Positions 21,861 to 50,664 are shown, counted from the stretch's first letter. The stretch: DNA of 64,000 nucleotides from an uncultured Lentisphaerales bacterium (GCA_964599645.1 CAZRGQ010000001.1:11135-75134); one strand, 5' to 3'. Program-made: numbers and translations. The notes: generated by a model from the sequence alone, not told the origin.

Positions 21861-21864
21861 CGTC

Positions 21865-31786: not shown

Positions 31787-31866
31787 TTTAACCGTGGCAA
31801 ACATGCCCCTGTATCAGGCAAGCCTGTCAGAAGAAACCGATGCAGGCAAATTGAATGGAGTTTAAC

Positions 31867-33876: not shown

Positions 33877-36058
33877 CGGCAATAGCACCGCAGAGTTTCC
33901 CTACGCCACACCAACCACGGCAGCGGCCACGATTGCAGCGGCCATTGAGGCGGCTCGTGATGGTGCCGCAGTTGCGGTGCTGCCCGGTGACTACCTGCTG
34001 GATGAGTCGCTGGAGATCGCCAAGGCGATCGAGGTCTACACCACCGCCGGCCCCGATGCCACCCGACTCTACAAGACCAAAACAGACGTCGTGATGTTGC
34101 GCCTGGGGCATCGGGAAGCTCTCTTCCACAGCTTTAATTTCGATGGCGGACGTCCCAACGTCGTCTACCTTTGGGATAACGGTGGCACCGTCAGCAACTG
34201 CTATATCCAGAACGGCTTCTACACCGCCGGCAGCGGCGTCGGGGTACGCGCCCGGGCTGGTCTGGTGACCCACTGCCGCATTAACAATAACAGTTCGGAT
34301 CGTGAAGGCAAAGGCGTCGGTGTCTATCTGGAGGGACCGGCCACAGTTGAGAACTGCCTGATCTACGCCAACCGGGGTACCCATGCCAATCTCAATGGCG
34401 GCGTCTACCTGGAAAAAGGCGCCACGATTCGCAACTGCACCATCGCCAAGAATCAGGCGCCCCACGGCGGTGGCGTCTATGCCGTGGCTGGCGCGACCAT
34501 CGAAAACTGCATTATCTACGGCAACGATGCCACCGCCCTGCACGGCGAGGGCGACCCCGACTGGTATGGCAGCGCCGCCACCTTCCGTAACAACTGTACA
34601 CCGATAGCTGTCGGCAGCGACTGCATTACCGCCGTGCCGGGCTTTATCGACTTTGCCGGTAACGACTATCGCCTCAGCCCCGCTTCACCCTGCGTTGACG
34701 CCGGAGTCGAAGTGCCCCATTTTGTGGCAGCGACCGACTTCTATGGCAACCCGCGACTGCTGGGCAGTGGCATCGATATCGGTGCCCATGAGGTGGAGAT
34801 TACCGCTGCCGGATGTGGCATCATTACCGATGTTGAGCAGGTGCTGGAGGGGACGGAGGTGGTGTTGACGGGAACAGCCTACGGCTTTGACGAGGGCGCT
34901 ACGTTGACCTACGAGTGGGACTTTGACGGCGATGGGGTGGCCGACGCCTTTGGCAGAGTGGTAACCAACAGCTTCCCGCCCGGCTACGTCACGGTGGGGC
35001 TGAGCGTCAGCGATGGCATTGCGACTGCCACCGTTGCAGAGGAGAACCTGCTGCTGGTGAGTCCGTTAAATCTCTACGTGGTGCCCGAGAACCCCAATGC
35101 CAGTCACCCCTACAGCAGTTGGGAGACGGCAGCCGATGATATCCAGGAGGCGATCGACACCGCCTTCGATGGCTCAACAGTCTGGCTCGGCAGTGGTCTG
35201 CACAGGCCGACGGCGACGGTTAACCTCGCCAAGGGGGTGGTGCTGCAGGGAACCAACACGGCTACTACGTTGATTACGCCAACGTCCGCAACCCGTATCC
35301 TCTATGTCTCGCATCCTGCGGCAGTGGTACAACGTCTGACATTGACCGGCAGCCAGAGCGGCGTCAAACTCGATCGTGCCGGCGGACGGCTGTCAGAGCT
35401 GGTGATCACCAACAACAGCTATAGTGCCGGTGGACTCTACGGTCAAGGTATCTGGATCTATGCCGGTACGGTAGAGCGCTGCATGGTAGTCGACAACCAG
35501 TTGCGCGGCCAATCTTACACGGCCGGAATTCGGATTGAGGCGCAGGTGGCACCCGAAGACCCGCCGGTATTGATCGAAAACTGCCTTGTGGCTCACAACG
35601 GCAGTTCACATGCGAGCGGCGAAACGGCCGGTATTTACGCCAGACAGGGGGTGGTGCGCAACTGCACGGTGGTGGGCAACACAACGGCTAACGGCAGCTA
35701 TGGTGCCGGGATTCATGCCGAGGCGGCGGCGACCATCGAGAACTGCATTGTGGTCGATAATCTCAACAGCGCCAAGGCCGCCCTGAACAACTGGGGCGGG
35801 ACGAGCGCCTCCTTCAGTTACACCTGCAGCGAGCCCGACCTGGGCGGCACAGGTTGCTTCAGCGCCGATCCCCTCTTTGTCGATGCAGGCAACTACCGCC
35901 TGCAGGCGGTCTCGCCGTGCGTCGATGCGGGGCTGACGCTCGAAGCGATGTACCTGCAATGCGACTTGGCAGGCAAGCCGCGTGTGCGGCAGCGAGGCGT
36001 TGATCTCGGCGCATACGAATATCTGCCACCGGCAGCGACGGTGCTACTGCTAAGGTAG
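33785..36058 (+). CDS. right-handed parallel beta-helix repeat protein with PKD-like domain, internally duplicated (~350-aa module x2)
   Basis: Module 1: VGLTVSDGSATAV...NLLYVVPAQLYVSDGNS...YRLSPASPCVDAGVE...GNPRLLGSGIDIGAHE. Module 2: YEWDFDGDGVAD...VGLSVSDGIATATV...NLLLVSPLNLYVVPENP...YRLQAVSPCVDAGLT...GKPRVRQRGVDLGAYE. GTG start, no signal peptide. Confidence 0.55.
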   Translation: MGLTVSDGSATAVTTANNLLYVVPAQLYVSDGNSTAEFPYATPTTAAATIAAAIEAARDGAAVAVLPGDYLLDESLEIAKAIEVYTTAGPDATRLYKTKTDVVMLRLGHREALFHSFNFDGGRPNVVYLWDNGGTVSNCYIQNGFYTAGSGVGVRARAGLVTHCRINNNSSDREGKGVGVYLEGPATVENCLIYANRGTHANLNGGVYLEKGATIRNCTIAKNQAPHGGGVYAVAGATIENCIIYGNDATALHGEGDPDWYGSAATFRNNCTPIAVGSDCITAVPGFIDFAGNDYRLSPASPCVDAGVEVPHFVAATDFYGNPRLLGSGIDIGAHEVEITAAGCGIITDVEQVLEGTEVVLTGTAYGFDEGATLTYEWDFDGDGVADAFGRVVTNSFPPGYVTVGLSVSDGIATATVAEENLLLVSPLNLYVVPENPNASHPYSSWETAADDIQEAIDTAFDGSTVWLGSGLHRPTATVNLAKGVVLQGTNTATTLITPTSATRILYVSHPAAVVQRLTLTGSQSGVKLDRAGGRLSELVITNNSYSAGGLYGQGIWIYAGTVERCMVVDNQLRGQSYTAGIRIEAQVAPEDPPVLIENCLVAHNGSSHASGETAGIYARQGVVRNCTVVGNTTANGSYGAGIHAEAAATIENCIVVDNLNSAKAALNNWGGTSASFSYTCSEPDLGGTGCFSADPLFVDAGNYRLQAVSPCVDAGLTLEAMYLQCDLAGKPRVRQRGVDLGAYEYLPPAATVLLLR

Positions 36059-36163: not shown

Positions 36164-36940
36164 ATGAAGTTTGGTGTTTGTGGCTCTCCCGAGCTGGCAC
36201 CGGCGGCGGCCGCTGCCGGTTATGACTATCTGGAGTGGTCGGTGCAGACATTCCTGCAGCCGCAGGCTGATGAGGCGGCCTTTGCAGCAGCGTGGGAGCT
36301 GGTCAAGGCCGCGCCACTGCCGATACCGGTCTGCAACATGTTTCTGCCGGCCAGCTTGAAGGTCACCGGCCCTGAGGTCGATCTGGCGGCGCTTGAGGCC
36401 TATGTGGCAATCGCCTGTGAACGCGCCGGCCGCGCCGGTGTCGATACAATTGTCTTCGGTTCCGGCGGCGCTCGGGCGGTGCCCGAGGGGTTTGCCCACA
36501 GCCGTGCCACGAGTCAGATCGTTGAATTCCTGCAACGTGTCGCCCCCCTGGCGGCCGCACATGGGGTAGTCATCGTAATCGAACCGCTCCGCTATCAGGA
36601 GTGCAACATCCTCAATACTGTGGCCGAGAGCGCAGCCGTCGCCCGCCTTGTCGACCGCCCCTCTATCAAGCTGTTGGTCGATGGTTACCACTGGGCCTGC
36701 AATGGGGAGAGCGAAGAGGATCTCAGCGCGGCTGCGCCGCTCTTCCGCCACATGCATGTGGCCACCAAAGCCAACCGCATGCCGCCCGGCAGTGAGCCTT
36801 GTGAGGCTCTGCCCCGCTTTCTAAAGATGGTGGGCAGCATCGGCTATACGGGGCGTCTCTCTTACGAGGGTCGCCTGGCCGACCCGGCTGTCGAGCTGCC
36901 GCGCGCACTCGAGATGATGCGTAGCGGCACTGCCCGATAA
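36164..36940 (+). CDS. sugar phosphate isomerase/epimerase (xylose-isomerase-like TIM barrel)
   Basis: MKFGVCG...DYLEW... pattern and length fit the AP-endonuclease-2/xylose-isomerase-like TIM-barrel family. Confidence 0.55.
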   Translation: MKFGVCGSPELAPAAAAAGYDYLEWSVQTFLQPQADEAAFAAAWELVKAAPLPIPVCNMFLPASLKVTGPEVDLAALEAYVAIACERAGRAGVDTIVFGSGGARAVPEGFAHSRATSQIVEFLQRVAPLAAAHGVVIVIEPLRYQECNILNTVAESAAVARLVDRPSIKLLVDGYHWACNGESEEDLSAAAPLFRHMHVATKANRMPPGSEPCEALPRFLKMVGSIGYTGRLSYEGRLADPAVELPRALEMMRSGTAR

Positions 36941-37770
36941 TGCGCATCGATTGTCACGTACACGCCTTTGCCGAGGCTATCGTCGAGCGCGCCATGACGG
37001 CCTTGCGCGCCGAATTGCCGTCCGACCATGTCTCTGATGATGGACGCCTCGATACACTGGTGGCCCATCTCGACCGGCTTGAGTTTGACCACGCCATCGT
37101 GGCCTCCATCGCCACCAAACCGAGCCAGTTTGAGGTGATCCGGCAGTGGAGCAGCAGCATTCGTAACGGCGCGCTGGGAGCGGGGGCAGCAGAGAAGCTG
37201 ATCCCCTTCCTCTCGGTGCATCCGTCCGATCCCGCACGTTTCAAGCATATCGAAGAGACGGCCAGAGGCGGCTTCAAGGGCCTGAAGCTGCACCCCTACT
37301 ACCAGTCGTTTTCACTGGCCGATGGTGTCATCAGCGAGATGCTGCAGTGTGCCGCCGACAACAACCTCGTGGTGCTGCTGCACACCGGCTACGATATCGC
37401 CTTTGCGCGTGAGCCCGTGGCCGATCCGGCCAAGCTGCTGCGGCTGACTGAAAAATTACCCGATCTCAAGCTGATCGCCGCCCACTTCGGCGGCTGGGAC
37501 GACTGGGAGGCTGTCGCACACCACCTCATCGGTGCGCCCATCGCCCTTGATATCTCAATGGCACGCGGTTTTCTAGACCCGGAACGTATGCACGAGATGC
37601 TGTTGCGCCACTCCCCCGACCTGTTGCTTTACGGCAGCGACTGGCCCTGGAACGGCCAGGACGCAGACCTTGAGCTGCTCCACTCCTTCAACTTGCCACC
37701 AGCGCTCATGCAAGCCATTATGGGCGATAACGCCGCGCGTCTGCTGGCACTTAAACATGAGGTAGCATAA
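36940..37770 (+). CDS. amidohydrolase-2 family metal-dependent hydrolase (TIM barrel)
   Basis: MRIDCHVHAF (HxH metal-binding start), ...LHTGYD..., ...AAHFGGWDDW.... Start overlaps the upstream stop. Confidence 0.65.
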   Translation: MRIDCHVHAFAEAIVERAMTALRAELPSDHVSDDGRLDTLVAHLDRLEFDHAIVASIATKPSQFEVIRQWSSSIRNGALGAGAAEKLIPFLSVHPSDPARFKHIEETARGGFKGLKLHPYYQSFSLADGVISEMLQCAADNNLVVLLHTGYDIAFAREPVADPAKLLRLTEKLPDLKLIAAHFGGWDDWEAVAHHLIGAPIALDISMARGFLDPERMHEMLLRHSPDLLLYGSDWPWNGQDADLELLHSFNLPPALMQAIMGDNAARLLALKHEVA

Positions 37771-37771
37771 C

Positions 37772-38629
37772 GTGAATCAATCAGCCCCCCCTCCCCAGCT
37801 CCGCGATCTGCAAGAGCGCTTCCAAACTGAAGGCACGCTCTGTGATGTAGCCCCCACACTGGCGGCCCTCTGGGGCTTGCCGCCGCCGGCCGAGGCTCAG
37901 GGAACGCCACTGCCACGCGTCTTGCAGGCGGCCGGCGAGCGGCTGCCGGCCGACACACCGCTGCAACGCACCCTGATCTTCTGTCCCGATGCCGTTGGCG
38001 ACATCATCCATCAGGCCTACCCGGACTACTTTGCCAACATACAAACAGTGGCTGATATCAAGACGAGCTGCACCTCGGTAATGCCGAGTGTCACACCCGT
38101 CTGCTTCGGTTCGATCTTTACCGGCGCCATGCCGGCTGTGCATGGCATTCAGGAGTATGCCAAGCCGGTGATCAAGATCGAGACATTGCACGACGTCTTC
38201 CATAATGCCGGACTGCGCGTCGCCTCGATCGCCGTCAACAACTGCAGCATCGACAAAATCTTCCGCGACCGCAAAATCACCTACATCTCGGCCCGCAGCA
38301 ATGCCGAGGCCTTCGACTTTACCACCGCCCTGATCGAGCGTGACGCCTATGACGTGATTATCAGCTACGATGGTGGCTACGACAGCAGCATCCACAAACA
38401 TGGCTGCCGTGCCCCGGAATCGCTCGAAATGTTGCGTCTGGCTCTGCAGCGCTACGCCGACCTGGTAGCCTTGACCGACAAATATTGGCAACCCTACCAC
38501 CGTCTGGTAACCTTTACCCCCGACCACGGTTGTCACGACGTGCCCGAGACCGGCAAGGGCAAGCACGGCAGTGACAGCTTCGACGACATCGTGCTTAACC
38601 ACTACTACCGCTTCAGAGCAGGAGCATAA
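37772..38629 (+). CDS. alkaline-phosphatase-superfamily enzyme, type I phosphodiesterase / nucleotide pyrophosphatase (NPP)-like
   Basis: LIFCPDAVGD (metal Asp), MPSVTPVCFGSIFTGAMPAVHGI (Thr nucleophile TxP and TG..P..HGI motif) and TFTPDHGCHD (DHG metal motif). Only 285 aa. Confidence 0.55.
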   Translation: MNQSAPPPQLRDLQERFQTEGTLCDVAPTLAALWGLPPPAEAQGTPLPRVLQAAGERLPADTPLQRTLIFCPDAVGDIIHQAYPDYFANIQTVADIKTSCTSVMPSVTPVCFGSIFTGAMPAVHGIQEYAKPVIKIETLHDVFHNAGLRVASIAVNNCSIDKIFRDRKITYISARSNAEAFDFTTALIERDAYDVIISYDGGYDSSIHKHGCRAPESLEMLRLALQRYADLVALTDKYWQPYHRLVTFTPDHGCHDVPETGKGKHGSDSFDDIVLNHYYRFRAGA

Positions 38630-38631
38630 CC

Positions 38632-39564
38632 ATGCAATGGTACAAAGGTACACTACACTGCCACACCAACCACAGTGACGGACTCGCCAAACCGTTTCAA
38701 GTAGGCCACTTCTACCGTATACAGGGACACGACTTCCTCGGTGTCTCCGACCACAACCGCTACACTCCCACCGAGCTCTATGCCGCTTCATCCGGGCTGC
38801 TGGGTGTCCCCTGTTGCGAGTATAGCGACTATATGAGTTGTCACGTCCTCTCCATCGGTGTTACAGAGGATCTCCGCCCCGGGCCGCGTGATGGCGCAAC
38901 GAAGTATATTCCGCACGAACTGCTGCAAGAGGGGATCGACAAGACACTCGCCGCCGGTGGCCTCCCCGTCGTCTGCCATCCCCTCTGGAACTGGGCTGTC
39001 GACGCCGACGACATGTTGCAGCTTAAAAACTGCCACCACTTTGAGGTCTGCAACGCCGGCCCCAGCTGCAACGCCTTTCCCATTCCAGGTTATGAGCCGA
39101 TCGATGAGCTCTGGGACCGCCTCCTGAGCGCCGGGCATCGCTACTACGGGCTGGCCAACGACGACGCCCACGAATACTTCTATCCGCCGATCCTCCGCGC
39201 CGACATGGGTGGCATCGGCTACAACGTGGTCCGCATTCCCGAATTGACCGTGGAACACGTCATCGAAGCGATCCGACATGGACGCTTCTACGCCTCCAGC
39301 GGCATCCATCTGGCTGAATATCGCGTCACCGGCAATGGCATCACGATCAAGCTGCAGCAGCAACAGAAGGAGCGCACCGTCTTCCAATTCTTCGGCCACG
39401 GTGGCCGCGAATTGAAAAAGGTAGTCGGCCAGGAGGCCGACTACACCTTTAACGGTGACGAAAACTACGTCCGCATCCGCATTGCATCAACCGCCGGTCT
39501 CTGGGCCTGGACCCAGCCGGTATTTCTCGACGACCTGGCAGACGCCATCAACTGGACCAAGTGA
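38632..39564 (+). CDS. PHP-domain metal-dependent phosphoesterase
   Basis: GTLHCHTNHSDG is the PHP motif I (HxH...SDG), with further His/Asp residues downstream. Confidence 0.6.
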   Translation: MQWYKGTLHCHTNHSDGLAKPFQVGHFYRIQGHDFLGVSDHNRYTPTELYAASSGLLGVPCCEYSDYMSCHVLSIGVTEDLRPGPRDGATKYIPHELLQEGIDKTLAAGGLPVVCHPLWNWAVDADDMLQLKNCHHFEVCNAGPSCNAFPIPGYEPIDELWDRLLSAGHRYYGLANDDAHEYFYPPILRADMGGIGYNVVRIPELTVEHVIEAIRHGRFYASSGIHLAEYRVTGNGITIKLQQQQKERTVFQFFGHGGRELKKVVGQEADYTFNGDENYVRIRIASTAGLWAWTQPVFLDDLADAINWTK

Positions 39565-39565
39565 G

Positions 39566-41032
39566 ATGAAGAGAGAGAGCTTCCCCTTTGCCACACGTGA
39601 CAGCGAATATATCGCGCTACAGCTTGCGCCGGAGCAACTCGGGTTTGTGCCGGAGACGATGTGGAACCCCAGCCCGACCCGCACCCACCGCACCGCCCCC
39701 TGGGAGCTGCCCAAAGAGCTTACCATCAGTATCTTCGGCAATGAAGATACGAGCGCCAAGTTCTCGCCACCACCCTTTGCCGTTGTAGTGGCTGGCCAGG
39801 GCCGCAGCGCACTGGTGAGCGTGGTGGCCGAACGCGGCTGGCACCTCTTCAACGGCGTCGATTTTGCCGCCGACAGCTCCGGCGTCACGATCACGATCGA
39901 TCTCGAGGGCCAGAACCCGGCCGACGAGGTGGCAGCCCGCGTCAAGGCTACCATCACCTCCGCCACCCCCGGCGAAAGCAACCTCGCACTACTGACACGC
40001 GGTCTGGCGGCCGACTACCCGGAGGCAACACCGCCGGCCGGCGCCACCACTCCCGAGTGGTGGAGTCGCCCCATCTACTGCGGCTGGGGTGACCAGGTCT
40101 CCACCTCGATGTGGCTTGAGGGTATCGGCAACGAGATGCGTGCCAACGCCTACTGCATCCAGGGGCTCTACGAGCGTTGGATCAAGCGTCTGGAGGAGGC
40201 TGAGGTCCCCTTTGGCACCATCATCATCGACGCCGGCTGGTCGCCCCCCGGCACCATGGTGCCGCTCACGGCCCAGTGGCCCGACCTCAAGGGCTTTATC
40301 GCCCGCCAACATGCCGCCGGACGCAAAGTACTGCTCTGGATCGCCACCTGGCTTAGCGACGGCTTGCCCGCAGAGTGGTGCGTCCACGTCAATGGCACCC
40401 GCCTGATTGCCGATGCCAGCCATCCCGACTACCGCAAATTCCTGCAACAACGCGTCCGCGACCTGATCTCGCCCGACGGCCTCGATGCCGACGGCTTCAA
40501 GATCGACCAACTCGCCTTCTCCCCCTCACGCCGTCAACCGCGCGGCCGTATCTACCTCGACAAGTTTATCGATGTCGACCCGCCGGCAGAGCCGATCAAA
40601 ACGGCCGGCCCCGGCTGGGGTGTCGAACTGCTGCACCAACTGCAGCACGATATCTACAGCGCGGCCAAGGAGGTCAAGCCCGACAGCCTCATCACCAGCA
40701 GCACCGTCCACCCCTATTTTCACGACACCTTCGATATGGTGCGCCTCCACGACATGGGTTCGGTGGCCGCCGATATCTTCGCCGCCATGGGGGCGCGAGC
40801 CGACATGGCTCTTGCAGCCCTGCCCGGCAAGCTGATCGACACCGACGACTGGATTCACACCAACTACGCCCTCTGGCAGGATTACACCGCCAACAGCCGC
40901 CGTATCGGTGTGCCCTGTATCTTTTACGCTGAGCGCTTTATGCTCAACTGGCGGGCCGAACCTGCCACCAAATTGATCCCGCTTGAAGATCTGCGCACCA
41001 TCGGCAACGTCTGGCGCGCACAAAAGGGATAA
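39566..41032 (+). CDS. putative glycoside hydrolase (TIM-barrel, alpha-galactosidase/GH114-like; family not assigned)
   Basis: IIIDAGW and KVLLWIATW motifs resemble catalytic-barrel strands of clan GH-D-like enzymes. Start 2 nt after the upstream stop. Confidence 0.4.
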   Translation: MKRESFPFATRDSEYIALQLAPEQLGFVPETMWNPSPTRTHRTAPWELPKELTISIFGNEDTSAKFSPPPFAVVVAGQGRSALVSVVAERGWHLFNGVDFAADSSGVTITIDLEGQNPADEVAARVKATITSATPGESNLALLTRGLAADYPEATPPAGATTPEWWSRPIYCGWGDQVSTSMWLEGIGNEMRANAYCIQGLYERWIKRLEEAEVPFGTIIIDAGWSPPGTMVPLTAQWPDLKGFIARQHAAGRKVLLWIATWLSDGLPAEWCVHVNGTRLIADASHPDYRKFLQQRVRDLISPDGLDADGFKIDQLAFSPSRRQPRGRIYLDKFIDVDPPAEPIKTAGPGWGVELLHQLQHDIYSAAKEVKPDSLITSSTVHPYFHDTFDMVRLHDMGSVAADIFAAMGARADMALAALPGKLIDTDDWIHTNYALWQDYTANSRRIGVPCIFYAERFMLNWRAEPATKLIPLEDLRTIGNVWRAQKG

Positions 41033-41063
41033 CAACAAATCCGTAAACGACGCTGCCCTGAAG

Positions 41064-42833
41064 ATGACATACGGTGAATTACCCCACAAGGCTGGCGGAG
41101 GTGTCGGAGAGTACCAGTGGCATATCTGGTCTCTGCTGGCAGCCTCTTTTTTAATAGCTTCGCTGCTCCATCTGCCGATACCGAAGCTGCTGCCACTGAC
41201 GCCATGGCGCATAGTGCTTCTCGTGCTGTTGGCTGTCGCGCTCTTGCGGCCTAAAACAGTGCTGCCGCTCAGACAGCGATTCGAACAGCTCTACAAAACA
41301 GCATTCCGCAGATATCTGCTTATATTGTTCATCTGCGGTACACTCTTCTACGTCTTGCTTGCCTGGCTGATCTTCGACGGTTTACCGGTGCTCGATGATG
41401 ACGCCTCGGCCTTGATACAGGCACGCATCTTCGCCAGCGGCCGCATCCTGCTGCCACTCCCGCCACAACCGCAATTTTTCTGGATTCACTGTTTCCTGAG
41501 CGCCTATCAAGGGCTCAACTACATGTGCAGCATGTATCCGGTGGGCCATCCCTTGCTGCTGTTGCCGGGGGTGCTCCTGCATGTACCGTGGCTGACCATA
41601 CCGCTGTTTGGCGGCCTGCTGGTAGTGTTGACGGCCGTTACCGGCCAGGCGCTCTTTGGAGAGCGTGTAGGCCGGCTGGCCGGCCTGCTGGCTCTCTGCA
41701 GCCCCTTTGTGGCAGAGCTTTCGGCGACCCACCTCAATAACGTACCGACGGCGACCCTGCTGCTGTTCACTCTCTGGCAGGTAGTGCTCCTGATCCGGCG
41801 CGGCAAGGTGCGGCACAGTTGGCTGGCAGGTGCCGCTTTAGGGCTGGCGCTGTTAACCCGCCCGGCCACAGCGGCTGTGATGGGCGCGATCATCGCCCTG
41901 GGGCCATTGTGGTATTGGCGACGCATGCTCCGTTTTTGGAAACTGCTGATTCCGGCGGTATTGCCGGTATTGTTGGCGATGGTGCTCTACTTTGCCTATA
42001 CCCAGCACATTACCGGCGACTGGCGTCTGCCCGGCCATACCCTCGGCTTGGGACTTCGGGGAAAAATGGGGTTTATCAGATTCAATGAACTACGGGCTCA
42101 CACCTTGGCTGGTGGTTGGCACATAACCCTGTTGCGGCTTGGTGCCATTAATGCAAAACTGCTTGGATGGCCACTGCCAGCCCTCTTTGCACCTCTGACA
42201 GCAGTTTTTTTGCGTCGGGCTGACCGCCGCGATCTCTGGCTGCTCTTAATGCCTCTGGGCCTGTTGGCCACCTACCTATTCTTCTGGTACTATGAAGAGG
42301 AGTTTCCGGCTCGTTATATCTTCAGTAGTATGCCAATGTTGCTGATACTGTCGGCACGTGGTCTCCTCCTGCTGGCAGAGCGCCTGCACCTGCACCCCCG
42401 AAAACTGCTGGCCCCGCTCATGCTCTGCAATCTCCTGCTCTTTTTGCCAGCCCACCTCTCCTCCTTCAAAGGCAGCCATTGGGACGTCGAAAACCTGTTG
42501 CACCGCACAATTAAAATTTCAGGCATCAGCAATGCCATTGTCTATATCGATGCTTTCCGTTGCCTTGATGGACGATCTGATGACGAGAACGACTTCTTTG
42601 CCACCGGCTTCATACGTAACAATCTCGACTTCAATGGCGACATCATCTACGCCCGCAACCTGCGTCAAGACAACCACCTGCTGGCGGCAGAATACCCCGA
42701 CCGGTCATACTATCTATACCGGTATGATCGCCAACGCCACAAGGCTCTCCTCTATCGCCTTGAGTTTGATGGTGAAGAGCAACATGTGACCCACCTGCAT
42801 CTGCCCGCAAAGTTTATCATCAACCCCGACTAG
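41064..42833 (+). CDS. polytopic membrane protein, putative GT-C glycosyltransferase (ArnT/PMT family 39-like)
   Basis: At least 11 hydrophobic helices with a large loop after TM1 and a C-terminal soluble domain. Resembles ArnT/PMT-type transferases but there is no decisive motif. Confidence 0.4.
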   Translation: MTYGELPHKAGGGVGEYQWHIWSLLAASFLIASLLHLPIPKLLPLTPWRIVLLVLLAVALLRPKTVLPLRQRFEQLYKTAFRRYLLILFICGTLFYVLLAWLIFDGLPVLDDDASALIQARIFASGRILLPLPPQPQFFWIHCFLSAYQGLNYMCSMYPVGHPLLLLPGVLLHVPWLTIPLFGGLLVVLTAVTGQALFGERVGRLAGLLALCSPFVAELSATHLNNVPTATLLLFTLWQVVLLIRRGKVRHSWLAGAALGLALLTRPATAAVMGAIIALGPLWYWRRMLRFWKLLIPAVLPVLLAMVLYFAYTQHITGDWRLPGHTLGLGLRGKMGFIRFNELRAHTLAGGWHITLLRLGAINAKLLGWPLPALFAPLTAVFLRRADRRDLWLLLMPLGLLATYLFFWYYEEEFPARYIFSSMPMLLILSARGLLLLAERLHLHPRKLLAPLMLCNLLLFLPAHLSSFKGSHWDVENLLHRTIKISGISNAIVYIDAFRCLDGRSDDENDFFATGFIRNNLDFNGDIIYARNLRQDNHLLAAEYPDRSYYLYRYDRQRHKALLYRLEFDGEEQHVTHLHLPAKFIINPD

Positions 42834-42898
42834 CATAAGCTGGTCGCACTTTACCCCCCCGGCTGCATACGTGCCGCGCAACAACGGGAGTTCTGCCT

Positions 42899-44995
42899 GT
42901 GAGAAGTAACACCACCATCCACTCTATTGCCCGCTGCCTGGTAGCGGCTGCGGTTGCCACGGCACCAACCTTTGCCCAAACCGGCGAGACAGCGTCCAAT
43001 AGAGTTGTTACCGTCGCATTCGACAAGCCGGCCAGCGGTCATCTCTACCTGAACGATGGCAGCGACGCAACCCCTGCCACCACCTTCAAAATCGAAATGG
43101 TGCCCGAGGGGCTCCGTTTCGACTTCCTGGCAGAAGGGGCAGTGGAGCTGCAAGGCGATTTTGAGTTCTACTTCCAGGCCGCCGGCGAGCCGGTCGAGGG
43201 CAACCACTACCAGTTCTATACCAACTTCAAGCGGCTTGAGGCCCATTTAACCGCAGCCGAGCAGGAGCTGTTGGCGGCACGCGGGATTTCTGGCGACTTC
43301 CATCCCGCCCTGCGCCCCCACTACTCCTATTTTACCCAACCGACCAAGCGCTTTCAGGTCTTGCGGGAGTTCAAGACGAGCCTCACAGCCGCTGGCAGCA
43401 GTGCCAAGGTAGAGGTCTTCATCCCCTGGAATGCGCTCTATCACATTCTCCCCTATACGCCGGATGGCAAGGGTCAGGAGTGGCGCTTCTCGGCCTTCCG
43501 CAACGCCGACGGTGTGCGCTCGGCCTGGCAGGGAGCTTTGAAAAAACCGGCCACCTGGGGACGACTGCGCTTTGCCGACATTACCGAGTCAGAGTTGGCC
43601 CAACTCTACCGTACCATTGCCACACAGAACAGCCGGAGCGGCAAAAAGCCGCGCTTCGATCCGACCCTCTTCGCCAGCGACTCCCTGCCTGCCGCTCTGG
43701 CAAAGGTTGAGCGCGCACGCGCCCTGATTGAGCAACGCCTGCCAGCCGCTGATACCACGCTGCAGCCTGCTGCCATGGCAGCCCTCGCCGCCGGGAGCGC
43801 AGAGCTCCACAACTGGCGCGAAGTCATTGCCACCATCCACACCGGCACCCGCATGGAGTGGGCAGGGTGGACGCTTGAGTCGGTGGAGCGCAAGGCCGAC
43901 GGCGCGGAGAGCGCTACTCCCCTCCCCTTCGTAGCGAAAAGCGGCTATCTCCACCTCAGCAGCAGCAACAAACCGGCACCCGGCGTCTGCCGCGACAACT
44001 CGCTCCCCGCCAACGACGCCGGTGCGACGCGGTACCTGCGCCTCACTTATACCTTCACCAACGATCACGCTGATGCCATCTGGCTAACTGATCTCTGTGC
44101 CACGCTACGCACTGCGGACGAGCGCAAGCTGTTGCTCACAGTTGCCCTCAACGATGCCAAACTGCTCACAGAACACGACCCGGCAGTAGCCCCTACCAAC
44201 CTCCCCCTGCCGGCCATCAAGCAGGGCGACAAGCTGGTGCTCACACTGCGTGAAGCAGCCGGCCGGGCAGTCACCTTCTCCCTCTTCGGCCGCCTCGAGG
44301 CTCTCCGCTTCGGACTGGAGCCGCGCCAGGCCATCAACCATAACGCCCCCCTGCCGACCGACAAGTTTCTTCCGGTCAAGCGCGACCATGAGTACGACAT
44401 GCATCACATCAACATCTTTGCCGGCGAGCAATCGACACTACTGCTCGAAAAGCCACGCGTTATTCAATATGGCGGCTGGTTTGAAATCGGTTTCGTGCTC
44501 CACGAGCGCGAGCTCCGCAATGAGCTCTACCAGAAGTATCGCCTCGCCCAGTCGGGCAACATTATGGAGCATATGCTGATAACCAACTTCAAGATCGCCA
44601 ACACCCCGCTCGACTACCTGAAGCCGGAGTTGATCATCATCAGCGCCGATACCGCCTATCCGGCCAGCTTCTTTACAGCGGAGCAGGTCTGTGCCGCCTA
44701 CGATGAGTCGCTCGCGCTGATCCGCTCTCGCCTGCCCGAGGTCAAAATCGTCATGCTCGGCATTGTGCCCCGCGACCGCCAACTGCCACGCCTTACCAAG
44801 CTCAACCAGAAGCTGATGGAGTGGGCTGCGGCCAACAAGATTACCTACCGCGACCTCTTCCCCGTTTTTATTGACGAAGCTGGCCGGGTCCGCGACGAAC
44901 TCTTCCGCACCCCGCCCGGCTATATGTCCAGCGCAGGTTATCGGCTCTGGATCGAGCAGATCATCCCCGACCTCAAAGCCGTTAAAGACGCTTAG
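42899..44995 (+). CDS. secreted SGNH/GDSL-family hydrolase (putative carbohydrate esterase) with N-terminal carbohydrate-binding-like domain
   Basis: Signal peptide MRSNTTIHSIARCLVAAAVATAPTFAQ. The C-terminal ~200 aa have SGNH-hydrolase features (IIISADTAY..., ...KIVMLGIVP...). Confidence 0.5.
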   Translation: MRSNTTIHSIARCLVAAAVATAPTFAQTGETASNRVVTVAFDKPASGHLYLNDGSDATPATTFKIEMVPEGLRFDFLAEGAVELQGDFEFYFQAAGEPVEGNHYQFYTNFKRLEAHLTAAEQELLAARGISGDFHPALRPHYSYFTQPTKRFQVLREFKTSLTAAGSSAKVEVFIPWNALYHILPYTPDGKGQEWRFSAFRNADGVRSAWQGALKKPATWGRLRFADITESELAQLYRTIATQNSRSGKKPRFDPTLFASDSLPAALAKVERARALIEQRLPAADTTLQPAAMAALAAGSAELHNWREVIATIHTGTRMEWAGWTLESVERKADGAESATPLPFVAKSGYLHLSSSNKPAPGVCRDNSLPANDAGATRYLRLTYTFTNDHADAIWLTDLCATLRTADERKLLLTVALNDAKLLTEHDPAVAPTNLPLPAIKQGDKLVLTLREAAGRAVTFSLFGRLEALRFGLEPRQAINHNAPLPTDKFLPVKRDHEYDMHHINIFAGEQSTLLLEKPRVIQYGGWFEIGFVLHERELRNELYQKYRLAQSGNIMEHMLITNFKIANTPLDYLKPELIIISADTAYPASFFTAEQVCAAYDESLALIRSRLPEVKIVMLGIVPRDRQLPRLTKLNQKLMEWAAANKITYRDLFPVFIDEAGRVRDELFRTPPGYMSSAGYRLWIEQIIPDLKAVKDA

Positions 44996-45104: not shown

Positions 45105-46157
45105 ATGAAAACCTCTATCACTACCTTGATGGCCCTCTCAACGCTGCTACTGTTATCCGCCACACAGCCTCGCCTTGCGGCAGCTACGGAGAGTGCCGGG
45201 CAAGAGCTGGTCGTGCTTACCTGGAATGTGGAGAACCTCTTTGATGCCGAGGATGATCCCGACAATCCTGGTGATGATGCCTATACGCCGCAGGGCTGGA
45301 CACGCTGGACCGAGGCGCGTTACCGCCACAAACTGACCAACCTGGCCGAGGTGGTTTCGGAGTTGGTGCCCGATATCTTCTGTCTGGTCGAGGTGGAAAA
45401 CCGGCGGGTGCTGGAGGATCTCGCCAACCTGTTGCGGGTCAAACACAGCTTCGACCTGCCCTTTATCACCCATCGCGACTGCGGCGACCTCCGCGGCATC
45501 GATACCGCCATCATGAGCAAATTTGAACCGACGAATGTTGTCTGGCTCAAGCCGTTGGCCGTGCAGCGTGATATCATCGTGGCCGATTTCAGTGTCAACG
45601 GCAAGCCGCTGGCCATTATCCTGAATCACTGGAAGTCGCACTTTGGCAAGAAGGCTGAGTCCGACGCCATCCGCGAGTTGGAGGCGCGTACCGTGCGTGC
45701 CGAGGTGGAGCGGCGCCTGCAGGAGGACAAAGCGGCCGCCATCATCGTGACCGGCGATTTCAACGACAACGTCGAGAGCGTGATACCGCTGATACATGGC
45801 GGCTTTTCACTCGACTACGACGCCGTACTGCAGGATGGCCGCCTCCTCTACAATCTCTCCGCCGAGCTACCGCACAACCAGCGTGGCACCTACTACTACC
45901 ATCGCGACAAACGCTGGAACAGTTTCGATATGTTTGCCATCTCGCGCGGTCTGCTGACCAACGGCGTGCCGGCCTCTGCCTGGCAGATCAATCCTGCCAC
46001 CTTTAGCATCCATGCCCCCGAAAAGCTGCGACAGGAGGATGGCTCCCCCTACCCCTTCCGCCGCCTGCGTACCCGTGAGGGGGTTAAAATCTTCTCCGGC
46101 TATTCGGATCACTTTCCGATCGTTGTCACGGTCTCCGAGCGCGAGAGTGAAGAGTAG
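45105..46157 (+). CDS. endonuclease/exonuclease/phosphatase (EEP) family protein, secreted
   Basis: Signal peptide, then LVVLTWNVENLFD (EEP motif I). ...ILNHWKSH..., ...TGDFND..., ...SDHFPIVV... are further EEP motifs. Confidence 0.75.
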   Translation: MKTSITTLMALSTLLLLSATQPRLAAATESAGQELVVLTWNVENLFDAEDDPDNPGDDAYTPQGWTRWTEARYRHKLTNLAEVVSELVPDIFCLVEVENRRVLEDLANLLRVKHSFDLPFITHRDCGDLRGIDTAIMSKFEPTNVVWLKPLAVQRDIIVADFSVNGKPLAIILNHWKSHFGKKAESDAIRELEARTVRAEVERRLQEDKAAAIIVTGDFNDNVESVIPLIHGGFSLDYDAVLQDGRLLYNLSAELPHNQRGTYYYHRDKRWNSFDMFAISRGLLTNGVPASAWQINPATFSIHAPEKLRQEDGSPYPFRRLRTREGVKIFSGYSDHFPIVVTVSERESEE

Positions 46158-46220
46158 CAACCCAAAATTGCAAGGGTTGGCGCATGAAAAGAGGTAGAGA
46201 TGTGTGACAATTCCGGCAAA

Positions 46221-46982
46221 ATGGGGAGCAAGAGCGTGCCACATGTAGAGGAGCCGTTTTCACGGGTCGGTCTGCTCTTTGGCCCGGCGGCCCTGCCGCG
46301 ACTTGCCGATTCCGCCATACTGGTAGTGGGGCTTGGCGCTGTCGGGTCGTTCGCGGTTGAGGCGCTGGCGCGCTCCGGCGTCGGCACCCTCTATCTGGCC
46401 GATGCCGATGTGGTGGAGCCTTCCAATATCAACCGCCAGCTCTACGCCCTTGCAACTACCATCGGCGCTGCGAAGGCTACATTGGCTGCGGCCCGTGTGG
46501 CGGAGATCGCTCCCGCCTGCCGCGTCAAACCGTTTGCCGAATTTGTCACGGCAGAAAAATTGCCCCGCTTTATGGCGCTCAAACCCGATCTGGTCGTCGA
46601 TGCGATCGACATTATGCGCGACAAGGTGTCGCTCATCTGTGCCGCTTTGTCGCAGGGGATTCCGGTGGTGAGCAGCATGGGAGCGGCCAGACGTTACGAT
46701 GCCACCAAAGTGAGGGTTGGAGCGCTGGCTGAGGTTACAGGGTGTCCGTTGGCCAAAAGGCTGCGTCGTGAATTGCGACATGCGCCGGGCTGCAGTGAAG
46801 CTATGATAGAGCCTTTGCGTTGCGTCTATTCAACCGAAAAGGTGGAGCCCACTCCGCATCTGAGTGGAACTCTACAGCTAGCGAAGCCGCGTGTCATGGG
46901 CAGTCTGGTCTCCGTAACCGGCACCTTTGGGCTGGTTGCCGCCGGTGAAGCACTGCGCCTGCTACTCTCTCCGGCGGAGTAA
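46221..46982 (+). CDS. tcdA: tRNA threonylcarbamoyladenosine dehydratase (ThiF/MoeB-family E1-like)
   Basis: ILVVGLGAVGSFAVEALARSGVGTLYLADADVVEPSNINRQ is the ThiF/TcdA nucleotide-binding signature. Confidence 0.75.
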   Translation: MGSKSVPHVEEPFSRVGLLFGPAALPRLADSAILVVGLGAVGSFAVEALARSGVGTLYLADADVVEPSNINRQLYALATTIGAAKATLAAARVAEIAPACRVKPFAEFVTAEKLPRFMALKPDLVVDAIDIMRDKVSLICAALSQGIPVVSSMGAARRYDATKVRVGALAEVTGCPLAKRLRRELRHAPGCSEAMIEPLRCVYSTEKVEPTPHLSGTLQLAKPRVMGSLVSVTGTFGLVAAGEALRLLLSPAE

Positions 46983-47020: not shown

Positions 47021-47179
47021 AAGAGGAACGCGGAACAGGCCGTCTGTGTGTGGTCAGAGCCTGTTCTTGCACCACCGGGAAGGAGGTGGACCCGTTTGTG
47101 GTGCACGCTCTCACGTTCCGCCACTATTCAAGCAGGTAGTGTGCCAAGAGATGCTTACATCCCCGGCTCTTTTATGCTA

Positions 47180-47207
47180 TGGTTGTGGCTCAATGGTTGT
47201 GGCTCAA
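47180..47207. repeat. tandem direct repeat 2 x 14 nt (TGGTTGTGGCTCAA) immediately upstream of the RBS of the 1161-aa gene
   Basis: Read directly; a third partial unit (TGG) follows. Candidate direct-repeat binding site for a response regulator. Confidence 0.6.
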
Positions 47208-47235
47208 TGGAACTAACTCTTCACAGGAGAACATC

Positions 47236-50200
47236 ATGAACTCTTCTCTCTCTGCCTTTACGATTACACTGCTGCTGCTCGCCGCCGGAGTCGGGGCCGC
47301 TCCCGGGATCACTGCCAACACCACCACCACGAAGTGGCAAGCGGTAGAGATAGTGGCGGAGGGCCACGAGCAGGTAGTGCAGCGTCCTGAAGAGTGTGAC
47401 AGCCTCCGTTTCAGCTTTATAGTCGGCTCTACCAACCAGAGTCTCTTGCGTATCATACGCAGCGACGGCAGTCAGGTCAGGGTGCCACTGTTCAATCAGG
47501 ACGACAAACGCTCATACTTCGGCAAACAGCCAAAGGTTGACCCTGAGGCAGCGCCCGCGCCTGCGCTCGACGACGCTGCCCTGCTCTTCAGACCGTGGCT
47601 GGCAGCTCATGTGCGTCCGTTGTTGCGTCGCTATACCGAGAAGCAGCAGGAGGAGTTGCAAGCGCGTTGGCAGACTCTGCCGCCGGCCTCGCAACAGACC
47701 TTTACCCTGGAGTTGCGCCAGCAGGAGGGCTTCTTCGAGCGCTATCTCAATGGACACTACATCGGTTACGACAAAGGCAGTTTCGACTCTGTCTGGCTTA
47801 AGCTGCCTGACGGCGGGCGGGTTTTTGACGCCGTAGCCGGCAACGCCTGGCGCGACGACCGGTTTCTGCCGCTGGAGATGGCATGGCTGGCACGTCCGGG
47901 AGCCTTCTCCAATGCGGTGCTCTCGCTCGACAGCGGCCTGCAGCAGATCGACGGGGTGCCGCTACAGGTTGCCCACGGCAGCGCCAGCGCCGACGTCGGT
48001 GTCGTGCGCCAGATGAAGGGCTCGTGGATGTTGGAGGTGGATGAACACCTCTCACGCACACCGTTCGACGGCATGCCGGAGAGCATTATCACCACCGTGC
48101 CGGCAGCCTACTACAGCCGCGCCTGGGTCTTGTGCGGTTTCAATCCTGCCAAAGGAGTCGATCCGATTGTAACGGCCAAGATGACACGCCACGCCCGGTC
48201 GGGGCGCGGTGGCGCCATCAGCAGCACGACGGTTGAGCTGCCACGCCAACGCGGCGACAAACTGCCCGCCAACGTGCGGGAGGTAGGTGAGATCAGACTG
48301 GAGGGCACCAACCTGCCGCTCTATCTGGTGGAGTTTGACCTCAAGCCGGGCGAGATACTCGACCTGCTGGCGATGGAGGAGGACAAGACAGCACGCATGA
48401 TGAGTCAGCCCTATCTCGATATCGACTTCATGGGTAAACCGGGACGGGTGGGAGCCCAGTGGGATGGCAGCAAGAAGCCCGACAACAAGTCGCAGAGCGG
48501 AGTACACCTCTTCGGGATCACACTTGAAAAGATGCCGCTCAAAATGAAGCTGATCCAGTCGGAACCGGGCAACATCTTCCACAACAGTGAAGAGCCGGTA
48601 GTCGGCGTCGAGTTACAGGCCACCGCCCCCGACGCCAACGGTAACCTGCGCTGGACTATTTGTGATGATGGCGGCCGGGAGTTGCAGCAGCAGAGCATCA
48701 AGGTGAGCTTCGGACGGGTTGGTGACCAGCAGAGTCTGAAACTGCCGCTACTCGTTTCCCGGCCCGGTTGGTACGGACTCAGGCTGGAGCTGATAGCCCC
48801 CGATGGCAGAGTCTGGCTACGCCATGAGGCGGCCTTTGCCCAGTTGGGGACCGACACCCGCCAGGCCGGTTATGAGTCGCCCTTCGGCTCTTCATGGTTT
48901 GCCGGCACGCACCACAGTGGCGGCGAGATGGAGATCGCCGGCAAGCTCTTCCTCAAGGCGGGGCTGCGTCAGGGGCAACTGCTGCGGGCCAAGTTTGATG
49001 AGGCCGATTTTGCCCCCTGGAAGGTGACGCAAAATGCCATCCCCTGGCGCATCCGGCCCAAATCGTTCGCCGATAGAGAGGCGGCCAAAGACGAGCTCGA
49101 GCCGCAGGTGCGGGAGCTGCTGCAGCGCTTCCCCCACTGCAACAGCGCCACCATTTTCCATGAGAGCTACAGCAGCAAGCTGCCGGCAGAGCTCTTCGGC
49201 GCGAGCAGCGTTGAAGATGAGGCACAGCTTGCCAAGATTCAAAAGATGGTGGAGCTGGGCAACTTCATGGGCGAATTCTACCGGGAGAGGTTTCCACAGG
49301 TCAGACTGGTGGTGGGCAACACGACCCACTCCTCAACGATTATCTCGGCGCTCTTGCGCCACGGTTTGAAGCCTGAATATATCGATGCCATCGGTATCGA
49401 GGTGGTCGGGCAGAGTTTTCTGCCCGAGCGTCTGACCGGCGGCGGCATTCAGGGGGCCTGGCTGGCGCGCGAGACGGCACGACGTCTGGGACATGAGATA
49501 CCGTTAACGGCCTGTCCCGAGTTTATCTATCGGCTCGACCGGACTCTGGGGCAACGCCGTCAGGCCGAATTCTATGCCCGTGACGTCCTGATCTCGCTCG
49601 CCTACGGCTTCGACCGCGTCACCCCCTCCCTCCTGATGGACGTCGGCAACTCCTACTACAACACCCTCTGGGGTGGCAGCGGCCTCTGCCAGCGCTATCC
49701 GCTGATCTACCCCAAACAGTCTTACGTGGCACTGGCCACCCTGACACGAGTTCTTGACCGCGCCGCGCTGGTGGAGCAGGTGCCGACCGGCTCCCACACC
49801 GTCTATGCCCTGCGCTTCAAACGGGCCGATGGCAATCAGGTGCTGGCGCTCTGGACCCCCGTTGGTGCCGCGACGCTGGAGCTGGAGTTTGAGCAGCGCA
49901 CGGCCATTGAGACTATCGGACTCCTCGGAGCCGGCAACCAGAGCCGCGAGGCACGCCGGCAGCAGGTCGTCGCCACGACTGCGCCCTGCTATGTGGTGAG
50001 CAGTCAGCCGGCTACGGCTGTAAACCTGCTGGAGCGCCGCTACGATCCACCACCGGCCACCTTCAAACCTCTGGAGTCGCTCAGCTCGACCAACACCTGG
50101 CAGTTGAGTGTTGGCGACCCCAAAGTGGAGAGCAAGAGCTACAATCTGCCCTATCGCAAGCCGGGCAGCTTCAAACTGAGCGAAGTAAAAGACGCTGAAC

Positions 50201-50664
50201 GCGGCGCTTGCCTTGAGGTGGAGCTGTTGCGCAGTGAGGCTGCCGAGGCGCTGGTGAGCGAATATACCTTTGTCGAACTGAAGGAGCCGCTGGCCGTACC
50301 GGATCAGCCTAGCGATATCGGACTCTGGCTCAAGGGCGACTCCGGCTGGGGCAAGGTGATCTTCGAAATTGAGGATGCCAAAGGCAAACGGTGGCGTACT
50401 GAAGGGCCCTACCACGATTGGCCGGGCGAGCTCTACATCGGTTTCGACGGCTGGCGCTTTATGCGTTATCCAATCGACGGCTACAGTAGCGAGATCAACC
50501 CCTCACCTACCGGGCGCTGGGGTGGTGCCTACGATGCCAAGCCGGCCATGCCGCTCAAACTGCGGGGTCTCTACCTGGCGCTCAACCGCCAGGCGCTCGG
50601 CCTGACAGAGATGCGCCCGGCTGCCGCCGTGATCCGCATTCAGGATATCGGCTTTGTCTACTGA
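47236..50664 (+). CDS. large secreted hypothetical protein (1142 aa from MNSS...), no recognisable domain
   Basis: RBS AGGAGA 6 nt before ATG 47236. Signal peptide MNSSLSAFTITLLLLAAGVGAAPG. Consistent coding composition to the stop at 50664. Confidence 0.7.
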   Translation: MNSSLSAFTITLLLLAAGVGAAPGITANTTTTKWQAVEIVAEGHEQVVQRPEECDSLRFSFIVGSTNQSLLRIIRSDGSQVRVPLFNQDDKRSYFGKQPKVDPEAAPAPALDDAALLFRPWLAAHVRPLLRRYTEKQQEELQARWQTLPPASQQTFTLELRQQEGFFERYLNGHYIGYDKGSFDSVWLKLPDGGRVFDAVAGNAWRDDRFLPLEMAWLARPGAFSNAVLSLDSGLQQIDGVPLQVAHGSASADVGVVRQMKGSWMLEVDEHLSRTPFDGMPESIITTVPAAYYSRAWVLCGFNPAKGVDPIVTAKMTRHARSGRGGAISSTTVELPRQRGDKLPANVREVGEIRLEGTNLPLYLVEFDLKPGEILDLLAMEEDKTARMMSQPYLDIDFMGKPGRVGAQWDGSKKPDNKSQSGVHLFGITLEKMPLKMKLIQSEPGNIFHNSEEPVVGVELQATAPDANGNLRWTICDDGGRELQQQSIKVSFGRVGDQQSLKLPLLVSRPGWYGLRLELIAPDGRVWLRHEAAFAQLGTDTRQAGYESPFGSSWFAGTHHSGGEMEIAGKLFLKAGLRQGQLLRAKFDEADFAPWKVTQNAIPWRIRPKSFADREAAKDELEPQVRELLQRFPHCNSATIFHESYSSKLPAELFGASSVEDEAQLAKIQKMVELGNFMGEFYRERFPQVRLVVGNTTHSSTIISALLRHGLKPEYIDAIGIEVVGQSFLPERLTGGGIQGAWLARETARRLGHEIPLTACPEFIYRLDRTLGQRRQAEFYARDVLISLAYGFDRVTPSLLMDVGNSYYNTLWGGSGLCQRYPLIYPKQSYVALATLTRVLDRAALVEQVPTGSHTVYALRFKRADGNQVLALWTPVGAATLELEFEQRTAIETIGLLGAGNQSREARRQQVVATTAPCYVVSSQPATAVNLLERRYDPPPATFKPLESLSSTNTWQLSVGDPKVESKSYNLPYRKPGSFKLSEVKDAERGACLEVELLRSEAAEALVSEYTFVELKEPLAVPDQPSDIGLWLKGDSGWGKVIFEIEDAKGKRWRTEGPYHDWPGELYIGFDGWRFMRYPIDGYSSEINPSPTGRWGGAYDAKPAMPLKLRGLYLALNRQALGLTEMRPAAAVIRIQDIGFVY

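Follow-up and report, generated by a model that had tools for sequence, protein, structure and literature searches.

Among the closest described counterparts of the locus considered here are the polysaccharide-degradation loci found in bacteria of the Planctomycetes-Verrucomicrobia-Chlamydiae (PVC) group, in which co-directional hydrolases are encoded next to heparinase II/III-like and beta-helix proteins. A string of seven + strand genes, termed g1 through g7, has the same outward appearance. The string spans positions 36164-44995 of a 64,000-nt stretch of DNA from an uncultured Lentisphaerales bacterium (GCA_964599645.1 CAZRGQ010000001.1:11135-75134); this whole stretch is called the window below, and all numbering refers to it. 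Unlike the PVC loci, the string includes no gene for a transporter, regulator, or sulfatase, shows no conservation between species, and encodes mostly cytoplasmic enzymes. A preliminary description of the window had read the seven genes as one operon for an uncharacterized pathway of glycan or phospho-glycan processing. On balance, and with moderate confidence, we favor a different reading: the string is lineage-specific and probably co-transcribed, but it brings together independently distributed families and is not a conserved multi-step pathway. What is new lies in two single families, those of the compact, permuted alkaline phosphatase (AP) superfamily enzyme g3 and of g5, a GH31/GH36-like protein (GH, glycoside hydrolase) that falls under all curated cut-offs.

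The gene string and its junctions

Seven open reading frames (ORFs) lie between 36164 and 44995, all on the + strand, and every one of them, along with its spacing, reads directly from the sequence as first described. The cellular locations given below are predictions.

g1, 36164-36940, + strand: xylose-isomerase-like TIM barrel, 258 aa, predicted cytoplasmic
g2, 36940-37770, + strand: Amidohydro_2 metal-dependent hydrolase, 276 aa
g3, 37772-38629, + strand: compact AP superfamily enzyme resembling nucleotide pyrophosphatase/phosphodiesterase (NPP) and PafA, apparently circularly permuted, 285 aa
g4, 38632-39564, + strand: metallohydrolase of the CehA/McbA family, of the polymerase and histidinol phosphatase (PHP) type, 310 aa, predicted cytoplasmic
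g5, 39566-41032, + strand: compact GH31/GH36-like (clan GH-D-like) protein, 488 aa, predicted cytoplasmic, putative retaining alpha-glycosidase
g6, 41064-42833, + strand: polytopic membrane glycosyltransferase of the GT-C fold class (PMT_2, GT39/ArnT-like), 589 aa
g7, 42899-44995, + strand: predicted secreted protein, 698 aa, with a conserved domain at the N-terminus and a degenerate SGNH-fold domain at the C-terminus

The first four junctions are very tight. The stop codon of g1 overlaps the ATG of g2 by 1 nt at 36940, and gaps of 1 nt (37770/37772), 2 nt (38629/38632), and 1 nt (39564/39566) separate g2 from g3, g3 from g4, and g4 from g5. The two remaining gaps are 31 nt between g5 and g6, assuming that g6 begins with the ATG at 41064 (a TTG at 40983 is the other possible start), and 65 nt between g6 and g7. 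Genes called independently on about 20 contigs from this organism have identical starts (products of 258, 276, 285, 310, 488, 589, and 698 aa) and so back the g1 start at 36164 and the g6 ATG at 41064. Shine-Dalgarno (SD)-like motifs (GAGG, AGGAG, GGGAG) lie 9-10 nt 5' of the starts of g3, g4, and g7, and those of g3 and g4 fall within the preceding gene. No signal peptide is found in g1 to g5, and the N-terminus of g7 is signal-peptide-like.

The string is tightly packed and co-directional, as first described, so that co-transcription of g1 through g5 is plausible. The packing is nevertheless normal for this genome and carries no special signal, since at least eight co-directional junctions elsewhere in the window overlap or are no more than 2 nt apart; they are found among mur/fts genes, pseudopilin-like genes, a glycan-synthesis pair, and restriction-modification genes. 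A scan of 31-47.5 kb for promoters and terminators returned counts equal to the shuffled expectation and is therefore uninformative about transcript boundaries. Scanning the entire window against Rfam and for tRNAs gave no matches, hence no riboswitch that would point to a ligand.

Under the reading that we favor, g1 through g5 would be accessory enzymes of cytoplasmic sugar and phospho-ester metabolism that are expressed together in this species, and g6 and g7 would take part in envelope glycan modification.

Conservation of the gene neighborhood

The evidence that carries this reading comes from neighborhood conservation, an analysis proposed along with the preliminary description, and it turned up no conserved synteny with g3, g5, g6, or g7 as the anchor. 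The g3-anchored sample comprised 80 loci from 80 species-representative genomes, at 35-50% identity, with more than 2 kb on each side in 60 of the 80. At the tblastn threshold, homologues of g2, g4, g5, g6, and g7 were absent from all 80 flanks; a g1-like gene occurred in 2 of the 80 and a heparinase-like gene in 1. A more sensitive phmmer re-check agrees, adding distant g4-like PHP genes in 2 loci, and neighbor clustering placed the commonest true partner family in only 8 of the 80. The closest g3 relatives sit beside leuD/leuB and Rex (67% identity), beside an ABC transporter and NAD synthase (54%), and beside nadC (49%). A link of g3 to NAD, considered because NAD synthase or nadC adjoins two close homologues, was not borne out by the 80-locus clustering and was dropped.

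Only loose associations with carbohydrate genes emerged. A g1-like gene lies in the flanks of three g3-anchored loci (L059, L076, and L078), co-directional and within about 1.2 kb in L078 only. That locus, from a Eubacteriales metagenome-assembled genome, encodes at 4256-7722 an AP_endonuc_2 protein, a glucuronyl-esterase-like protein, the g3 homologue, and a His_Phos_1 protein, all co-directional, and some other g3 homologues lie near Gfo/Idh/MocA, GH2, or FGGY genes. Such hints would fit a role of single enzymes in sugar or phospho-sugar metabolism; they define no pathway.

The g5-anchored sample consisted of 80 metagenome loci, 28 of them with more than 2 kb on each side. A distant PHP gene several kb away was present in 2-3 of the 80 (the phmmer re-check found distant g4-like PHP genes in 2), and no other member of the string was seen. 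Two of these loci, at 62% identity, extend over 21 kb, and the other members were not found in either. Around g6 homologues (34-60% identity), g5 and g7 were not found in 4 of 4 contexts, which instead contained UbiA, GT2 plus GtrA, second or further PMT_2 genes, and polysaccharide deacetylase. For g7, the nearest homologue is 47% identical; an SDR gene follows it, and the 363 nt that are available on its upstream side contain nothing g6-like. Relatives of g2 with annotated context, sought in plasmid records and at no more than 28% identity, come from Rhodococcus and haloarchaea; their contexts are unrelated and not beside a TIM barrel, and they are too distant to count.

The arrangement of g1 through g7 is thus repeated only on contigs of the same organism. 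An ENA contig (L172, coverage 0.79x) with the order beta-helix-g1-g2-g3-g4-g5-g6 was considered as independent synteny and rejected, being a low-coverage, frameshift-broken copy from the same or a very close strain. In all, about 165 loci of other organisms were covered, and none of the junctions g2|g3, g3|g4, g4|g5, g5|g6, or g6|g7 is conserved outside the species. The picture of a coherent pathway acting on a phosphorylated, acetylated, or N-acylated glycan is not supported by this result. Nor is that of a dedicated unit supported: the string encodes no transporter, regulator, kinase, or dehydrogenase, and the same directon also includes a CoA-binding protein, the heparinase II/III-like and beta-helix proteins, an endonuclease/exonuclease/phosphatase (EEP) nuclease-like protein, and a ThiF protein, the CoA-binding, EEP, and ThiF genes being unrelated to it.

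No described pathway or operon equals the set, just as the preliminary description had held, though, with no conservation of the set, nothing speaks positively for a new system either. Since comparative genomics lends no support to a functional unit, g1 through g7 matter little as a pathway, and we would not pursue them as a candidate for a new glycan system.

g3, a compact alkaline-phosphatase-type enzyme

The g3 product has the AP-type alpha/beta core fold and keeps the Thr nucleophile together with all six ligands of the two-metal site. D73, T108, D204, H208, D251, H252, and H265 are invariant in 29 aligned sequences, and the active-site motifs align with those of PafA, ENPP7, and PhnA. The protein would accordingly belong among the two-metal phosphoryl-transfer enzymes of the superfamily, with Thr108 as nucleophile. 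Its family is large, with 1,208 clusters at E ≤ 0.001, and relatives are encoded in at least 597 species-representative genomes, being widespread in Lentisphaerae, Planctomycetes, and Clostridia of the gut and of anaerobic digesters.

Because the segment CDVAPTLAALWGL, which is indeed present at the N-terminus of g3, lies near the C-terminus of canonical NPPs, the protein had been suspected of being either truncated or circularly permuted. It is not truncated: a length of about 285 aa is conserved across this very large family along with the metal and nucleophile residues, and the best 120 clusters are nearly all 265-330 aa. Permutation fared better. The D-x-x-P-T helix occupies residues 23-33 of g3, so the canonical order, in which the helix follows the last metal ligand, is not kept. 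When a profile was built from just the N-terminal 49 residues and used to search all sequences in the PDB, 22 matches came back, 18 of them to the AP superfamily, and all 18 of these fall on the core-closing helix: residues 493-519 of 534 in the phosphoglycerate mutase iPGM (the best match, E 0.0025), 505-534 of 549 in PafA, and 334-357 in sulfatases. In the full-family profile, positions 19-54 correspond to PafA 500-535 as well as to the final 30 residues of iPGM, 104-128 to PafA 63-87, and 195-257 to PafA 284-346. These matches support a circular permutation of g3 relative to the canonical superfamily, with the two helices presumably equivalent in three dimensions. Moving residues 1-62 to the C-terminus and re-scoring with PF01663 left the score of g3 in effect unchanged (31.0 to 33.1 bits), as it did those of two relatives (35.6 to 35.7 and 33.8 to 33.7 bits); the helix probably adds little to that model. 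No description of a circular permutation in the AP superfamily turned up in the searchable literature.

A further possible difference concerns the active site. In PafA, an Asn (N100) contacts the transferred phosphoryl group. By register, the nearly invariant Tyr129 of the g3 family, 21 residues past the nucleophile, would stand at this position.

Planctomycete members of the family (P0013, P0020, and P0097 in alignment A1) carry an N-terminal hydrophobic, signal-like extension, which is absent from the window g3 and from most Lentisphaerae and Clostridia members. The family may be sited on either side of the membrane, depending on lineage.

Opposite this part of the string, - strand ORFs at 37781-38791 (336 aa, in g3) and 38788-39399 (203 aa, in g4) have no homology support and were discarded as artefacts of high GC content. 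The same artefact is seen opposite g3 homologues in 10 loci.

g5, a GH31/GH36-like family

The g5 product consists of an N-terminal beta-sandwich and a (beta/alpha)8 barrel in a GH31/GH36-like fold, and it falls short of the curated models, scoring 15.8 bits with PF01055 (gathering cut-off 23.5) and matching nothing in NCBIfam. An invariant D314 follows the strand at 310-313 and an invariant D396 the strand at 391-393. Judged by position only, Asp314 (after strand 4) is likely the nucleophile and Asp396 (after strand 6) likely the acid/base, in which case g5 would be a clan GH-D-like retaining alpha-glycosidase. The family is strongly conserved across phyla, at 50-63% identity, and is a candidate new glycoside-hydrolase family of PVC bacteria and Omnitrophica.

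Around distant homologues (31-41% identity, loci L131-L171), genes for sugar ABC permeases, for a solute-binding protein, for LacI, for a mannosidase of the GH38-like kind, and for FGGY or ROK kinases recur as neighbors. Such sugar neighbors occur in up to 16 of about 41 loci, with family names read off cluster-representative sequences. This distant branch appears to serve in the breakdown of oligosaccharides; the close homologues, in contrast, have no conserved context.

The cytoplasmic products g1, g2, and g4

The fold assigned to g1 holds at the superfamily level only. It matches PF01261 at 96.1 bits (cut-off 31.1), and its solved relatives include the putative sugar isomerase 3kws (E 7e-14) and D-tagatose/psicose 3-epimerases (about 1e-7). 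Against every NCBIfam equivalog, including those for IolO, psicose 3-epimerase, and hydroxypyruvate isomerase, the score is far under the cut-off (no more than 60 bits, against 300). g1 is therefore best described as xylose-isomerase-like, resembling ketose 3-epimerases and sugar isomerases.

For g2, PF04909 (Amidohydro_2) matches over the full length at 91.8 bits (cut-off 26.4). The metal motif HxH occupies residues 6-8 (MRIDCHVHAF, in which CHVH is residues 5-8). The best solved relative reaches no better than E 0.06, and NCBIfam does not allow a subfamily to be assigned. Members of PF04909 are mostly lactonases, decarboxylases, and hydratases, and to our knowledge it is not a sugar N-deacetylase family; the earlier clue to N-acyl groups had no source beyond the Pfam name and is not supported. 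Both g1, as a ketose-epimerase/isomerase-like TIM barrel, and g2, as an Amidohydro_2 hydrolase, would be cytoplasmic, metal-dependent enzymes.

The g4 product found neither a Pfam match nor a solved relative in Pfam and PDB searches. It is placed by NF038032, with 103.6 bits against a cut-off of 80, residues 2-298 aligning to positions 1-313 of the 315 in the profile. The N-terminal motif HCHTNHSDG, of the PHP type (H-x-H...D), is present, and g4 is predicted to be a PHP-fold hydrolase of the tri-metal type.

The envelope proteins g6 and g7

The g6 product matches PF13231 (PMT_2) at 32.3 bits (cut-off 26.1). About 11 hydrophobic spans were counted in a crude hydropathy scan, with an LDDD motif after the third, and homologues number 18 in total. 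g6 may be a GT-C transferase that uses a polyprenyl-phosphate sugar donor.

Six of the seven original fold calls hold. g7, though homologous to SGNH hydrolases, lacks their catalytic residues. PF13472 (Lipase_GDSL_2) scores 29.3 bits, under its cut-off of 32.9, and covers profile positions 40-178 only. An exhaustive search for relatives yielded a small full-length family. In alignment A3, the more distant members retain GDSITDG, GISGD, GTNN, and DxLHP, whereas the corresponding stretches of g7 and of the proteins closest to it read GGWFEIG, SGNIME, SADTAY, and PPGYM. With blocks I (GDS), II (G), III (GxND), and V (DxxH) all replaced, g7 has lost its Ser nucleophile along with the oxyanion residues and the Asp-His pair. 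The most fitting description of g7 is a secreted pseudo-esterase with no predicted catalytic activity, whose SGNH domain is probably a binding or scaffold module. As the catalytic blocks are gone, the clue that had pointed to an acetylated glycan falls away, and this dead domain illustrates the risk of taking domain names for activities.

Alternative readings

Several observations speak for a functional unit and weigh against the reading given above. A row of five genes for cytoplasmic enzymes in which no junction exceeds 2 nt looks like a functional operon, lineage-specific catabolic operons do exist, and the heparinase II/III-like and beta-helix genes directly upstream fit a glycan-degrading locus. 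The loose carbohydrate theme is real, as seen in the sugar-uptake loci of distant g5 homologues, in the g3 homologues near Gfo/Idh/MocA, GH2, and FGGY genes, and in the Eubacteriales locus L078. Many of the metagenome loci are also short, just 28 of the 80 g5 loci having more than 2 kb on both sides, and the g1|g2 junction had no anchor of its own. A less likely alternative is that g1 through g5 form a genuine, recently assembled, lineage-specific cytoplasmic operon for the catabolism of a phospho-sugar or an alpha-linked glycoside taken up from outside. The oligosaccharide would come from the action of the heparinase-like and beta-helix proteins encoded upstream, g5 would cleave the glycoside, g3 and/or g4 would remove or move phosphate, g1 would epimerize or isomerize the released ketose or aldose, and g2 would open a lactone or hydrolyze a related intermediate. 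The SD-like motifs of g3 and g4 inside the preceding gene, the intact catalytic residues of g3, the GH31/GH36 fold of g5, and the distant g5 homologues in loci with sugar ABC, LacI, GH38, and kinase genes are all in keeping with such a route, as are the polysaccharide-lyase-like genes upstream. What tells against it is that no junction recurs in the roughly 165 loci of other organisms, that the string lacks a transporter, kinase, dehydrogenase, and regulator, that each family is found alone in varied and partly housekeeping contexts, and that the sequences yield no substrate. A bolder version, which we consider rather improbable, takes g1 through g5 as a recent lineage-specific cytoplasmic route for a phosphorylated alpha-glycoside, on which g5 (founder of a new clan GH-D family), g3 (a minimal permuted AP phosphoesterase with Tyr for Asn), and g4 would act in turn; its weaker form holds that g3, with relatives in at least 597 species, and g5 each represent a new family with new specificities, whatever the operon means.

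The two membrane- and export-related genes can also be set apart from the rest. The string would then hold two modules, an envelope glycosylation pair in which g7, as a dead SGNH-fold glycan-binding partner, assists the GT-C protein g6, and g1 through g5 as unrelated passengers on the same transcript. g6 and g7 are the sole envelope proteins of the string, spacers of 31 and 65 nt separate them from g1-g5, and P0259 and P0260, the proteins closest to g7, share its loss of catalytic residues, which hints that a non-catalytic role has been kept. The pair itself is not seen elsewhere, however: in none of the 4 contexts of g6 homologues does a g7 homologue come next, and the short sequence upstream of the nearest g7 homologue contains nothing like g6. 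We regard this arrangement as improbable. Least probable of all, and very doubtful in our view, is the original model, in which all seven genes serve the catabolism or remodeling of an envelope glycan (teichoic-acid-like or a phosphoglycan) that bears phosphate, O-acetyl, and possibly N-acyl groups, the phosphoesterases cutting phosphodiester links, the SGNH protein removing acetyl groups, and the amidohydrolase removing N-acyl groups. The string does combine two phosphoesterase folds with a GT-C protein and an SGNH-fold protein that is secreted, and no known operon is equal to this. Against the model, g7 lacks the Ser, Gly/Asn, and Asp-His blocks, which makes deacetylation unlikely; g3, g4, and g5 have no signal peptides and would not meet an envelope polymer; the family of g2 is, as far as we know, not one of sugar N-deacetylases; synteny is absent elsewhere; and the relatives of g6 sit with polyprenyl-phosphate sugar genes, not with phosphoesterases.

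The host chromosome

The window is chromosomal DNA of a PVC-type bacterium with about 60% GC. It contains housekeeping genes (mraZ-rsmH-ftsI-mur ligases, purD, and others), and the nearest relatives of its proteins belong to Lentisphaerae, Oligosphaeraceae, and Kiritimatiellia. A partial division and cell-wall cluster at 1414-9312 on the - strand (MraZ, RsmH/MraW, an FtsI-type penicillin-binding protein, and three Mur ligases, with a LysM protein at 334-1401) identifies the host as a peptidoglycan-making PVC bacterium and the DNA as chromosomal. Around the string and further downstream lie the following features; the heparinase II/III-like and beta-helix proteins noted upstream in the preliminary description are confirmed by PF07940 and PF13229 matches.

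31855-33876, + strand: heparinase II/III-like protein, upstream of g1 (PF07940, 32 bits)
about 33785-36058, + strand: double beta-helix/PKD protein, upstream of g1 (PF13229, 79.6 bits, plus a choice-of-anchor Q domain)
45105-46157, + strand: secreted EEP nuclease/phosphatase-like protein, downstream of g7 (PF19580, 179.6 bits)
46200-46982, + strand: ThiF-family protein, downstream of g7 (PF00899, 127 bits)
51689-52861, - strand: type I specificity subunit
53381-55015, - strand: type I N6 methylase
55046-58192, - strand: type I HsdR helicase-nuclease

The spacing from the beta-helix gene to g1 is 93 nt for the longest g1 ORF, or 105 nt if g1 starts with the ATG at 36164. The last three genes make up a complete type I restriction-modification system (51689-58192, - strand) with 47-49% GC, compared with about 60% elsewhere, and this stretch is probably a horizontally acquired island. 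Two large proteins, encoded at 47179-50664 (+ strand, 1161 aa) and 29069-30910 (- strand, 613 aa), each begin with a hydrophobic, signal-like segment and match nothing in Pfam. About 14 kb upstream of the string, at 20116-22431 on the - strand, a DegT/DnrJ/EryC1 aminotransferase and a Bac_transf initiating sugar transferase form an unrelated glycan-biosynthesis pair.

Comparison with known systems

Set beside characterized relatives, the members of the string diverge from them to different degrees. g4 resembles the CehA/McbA PHP metallohydrolases of NF038032 in its full-length match above the cut-off and in its N-terminal motif. The named members are carbaryl hydrolases from soil bacteria (PMC8292978), and g4 differs from them in having no link to carbamates; beyond this review of carbamate hydrolases, the searchable literature gave nothing relevant on CehA/McbA PHP proteins. 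g6 is like the PMT_2/GT39/ArnT GT-C glycosyltransferases in that its Pfam score is above the cut-off, it is polytopic, and it has an acidic motif in the first loops. It departs from them in that its subfamily is very small and in that genes for polyprenyl-phosphate sugar synthases adjoin its relatives and not g6 itself. The C-terminal 150 residues of g7 are homologous to SGNH/GDSL hydrolases, and because relatives of the same architecture keep the canonical blocks, g7 appears as a pseudo-enzyme branch of that family (PF13472).

The two families that hold the novelty are smaller than their characterized relatives. The comparators for g5 in clan GH-D are YicI (8T7Z), MalA (2G3M), a Bacteroides GH31 alpha-galactosidase (8J53), and the Thermus GH36 enzyme TtGalA (6LCJ). 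At 488 aa, against about 700 in GH31/GH36 enzymes, g5 lacks their C-terminal beta-sandwich domains. Similarly, g3 has 285 aa where NPP/PafA-type enzymes (the Xanthomonas NPP 2GSN/7MW8, PafA 5TJ3, and phosphonoacetate hydrolase 1EI6) have 380-550 aa, it has no cap or insertion domains, and in this organism it would be cytoplasmic, unlike those comparators. The g3 family looks like a minimal, circularly permuted core of the AP superfamily with a complete active site, and would offer a compact model for how this much-studied superfamily tolerates a change of topology: the helix D(V/L)(A/T)PT(L/V)xxLxG, which ends the core in canonical NPP/PafA enzymes, stands at the N-terminus in g3.

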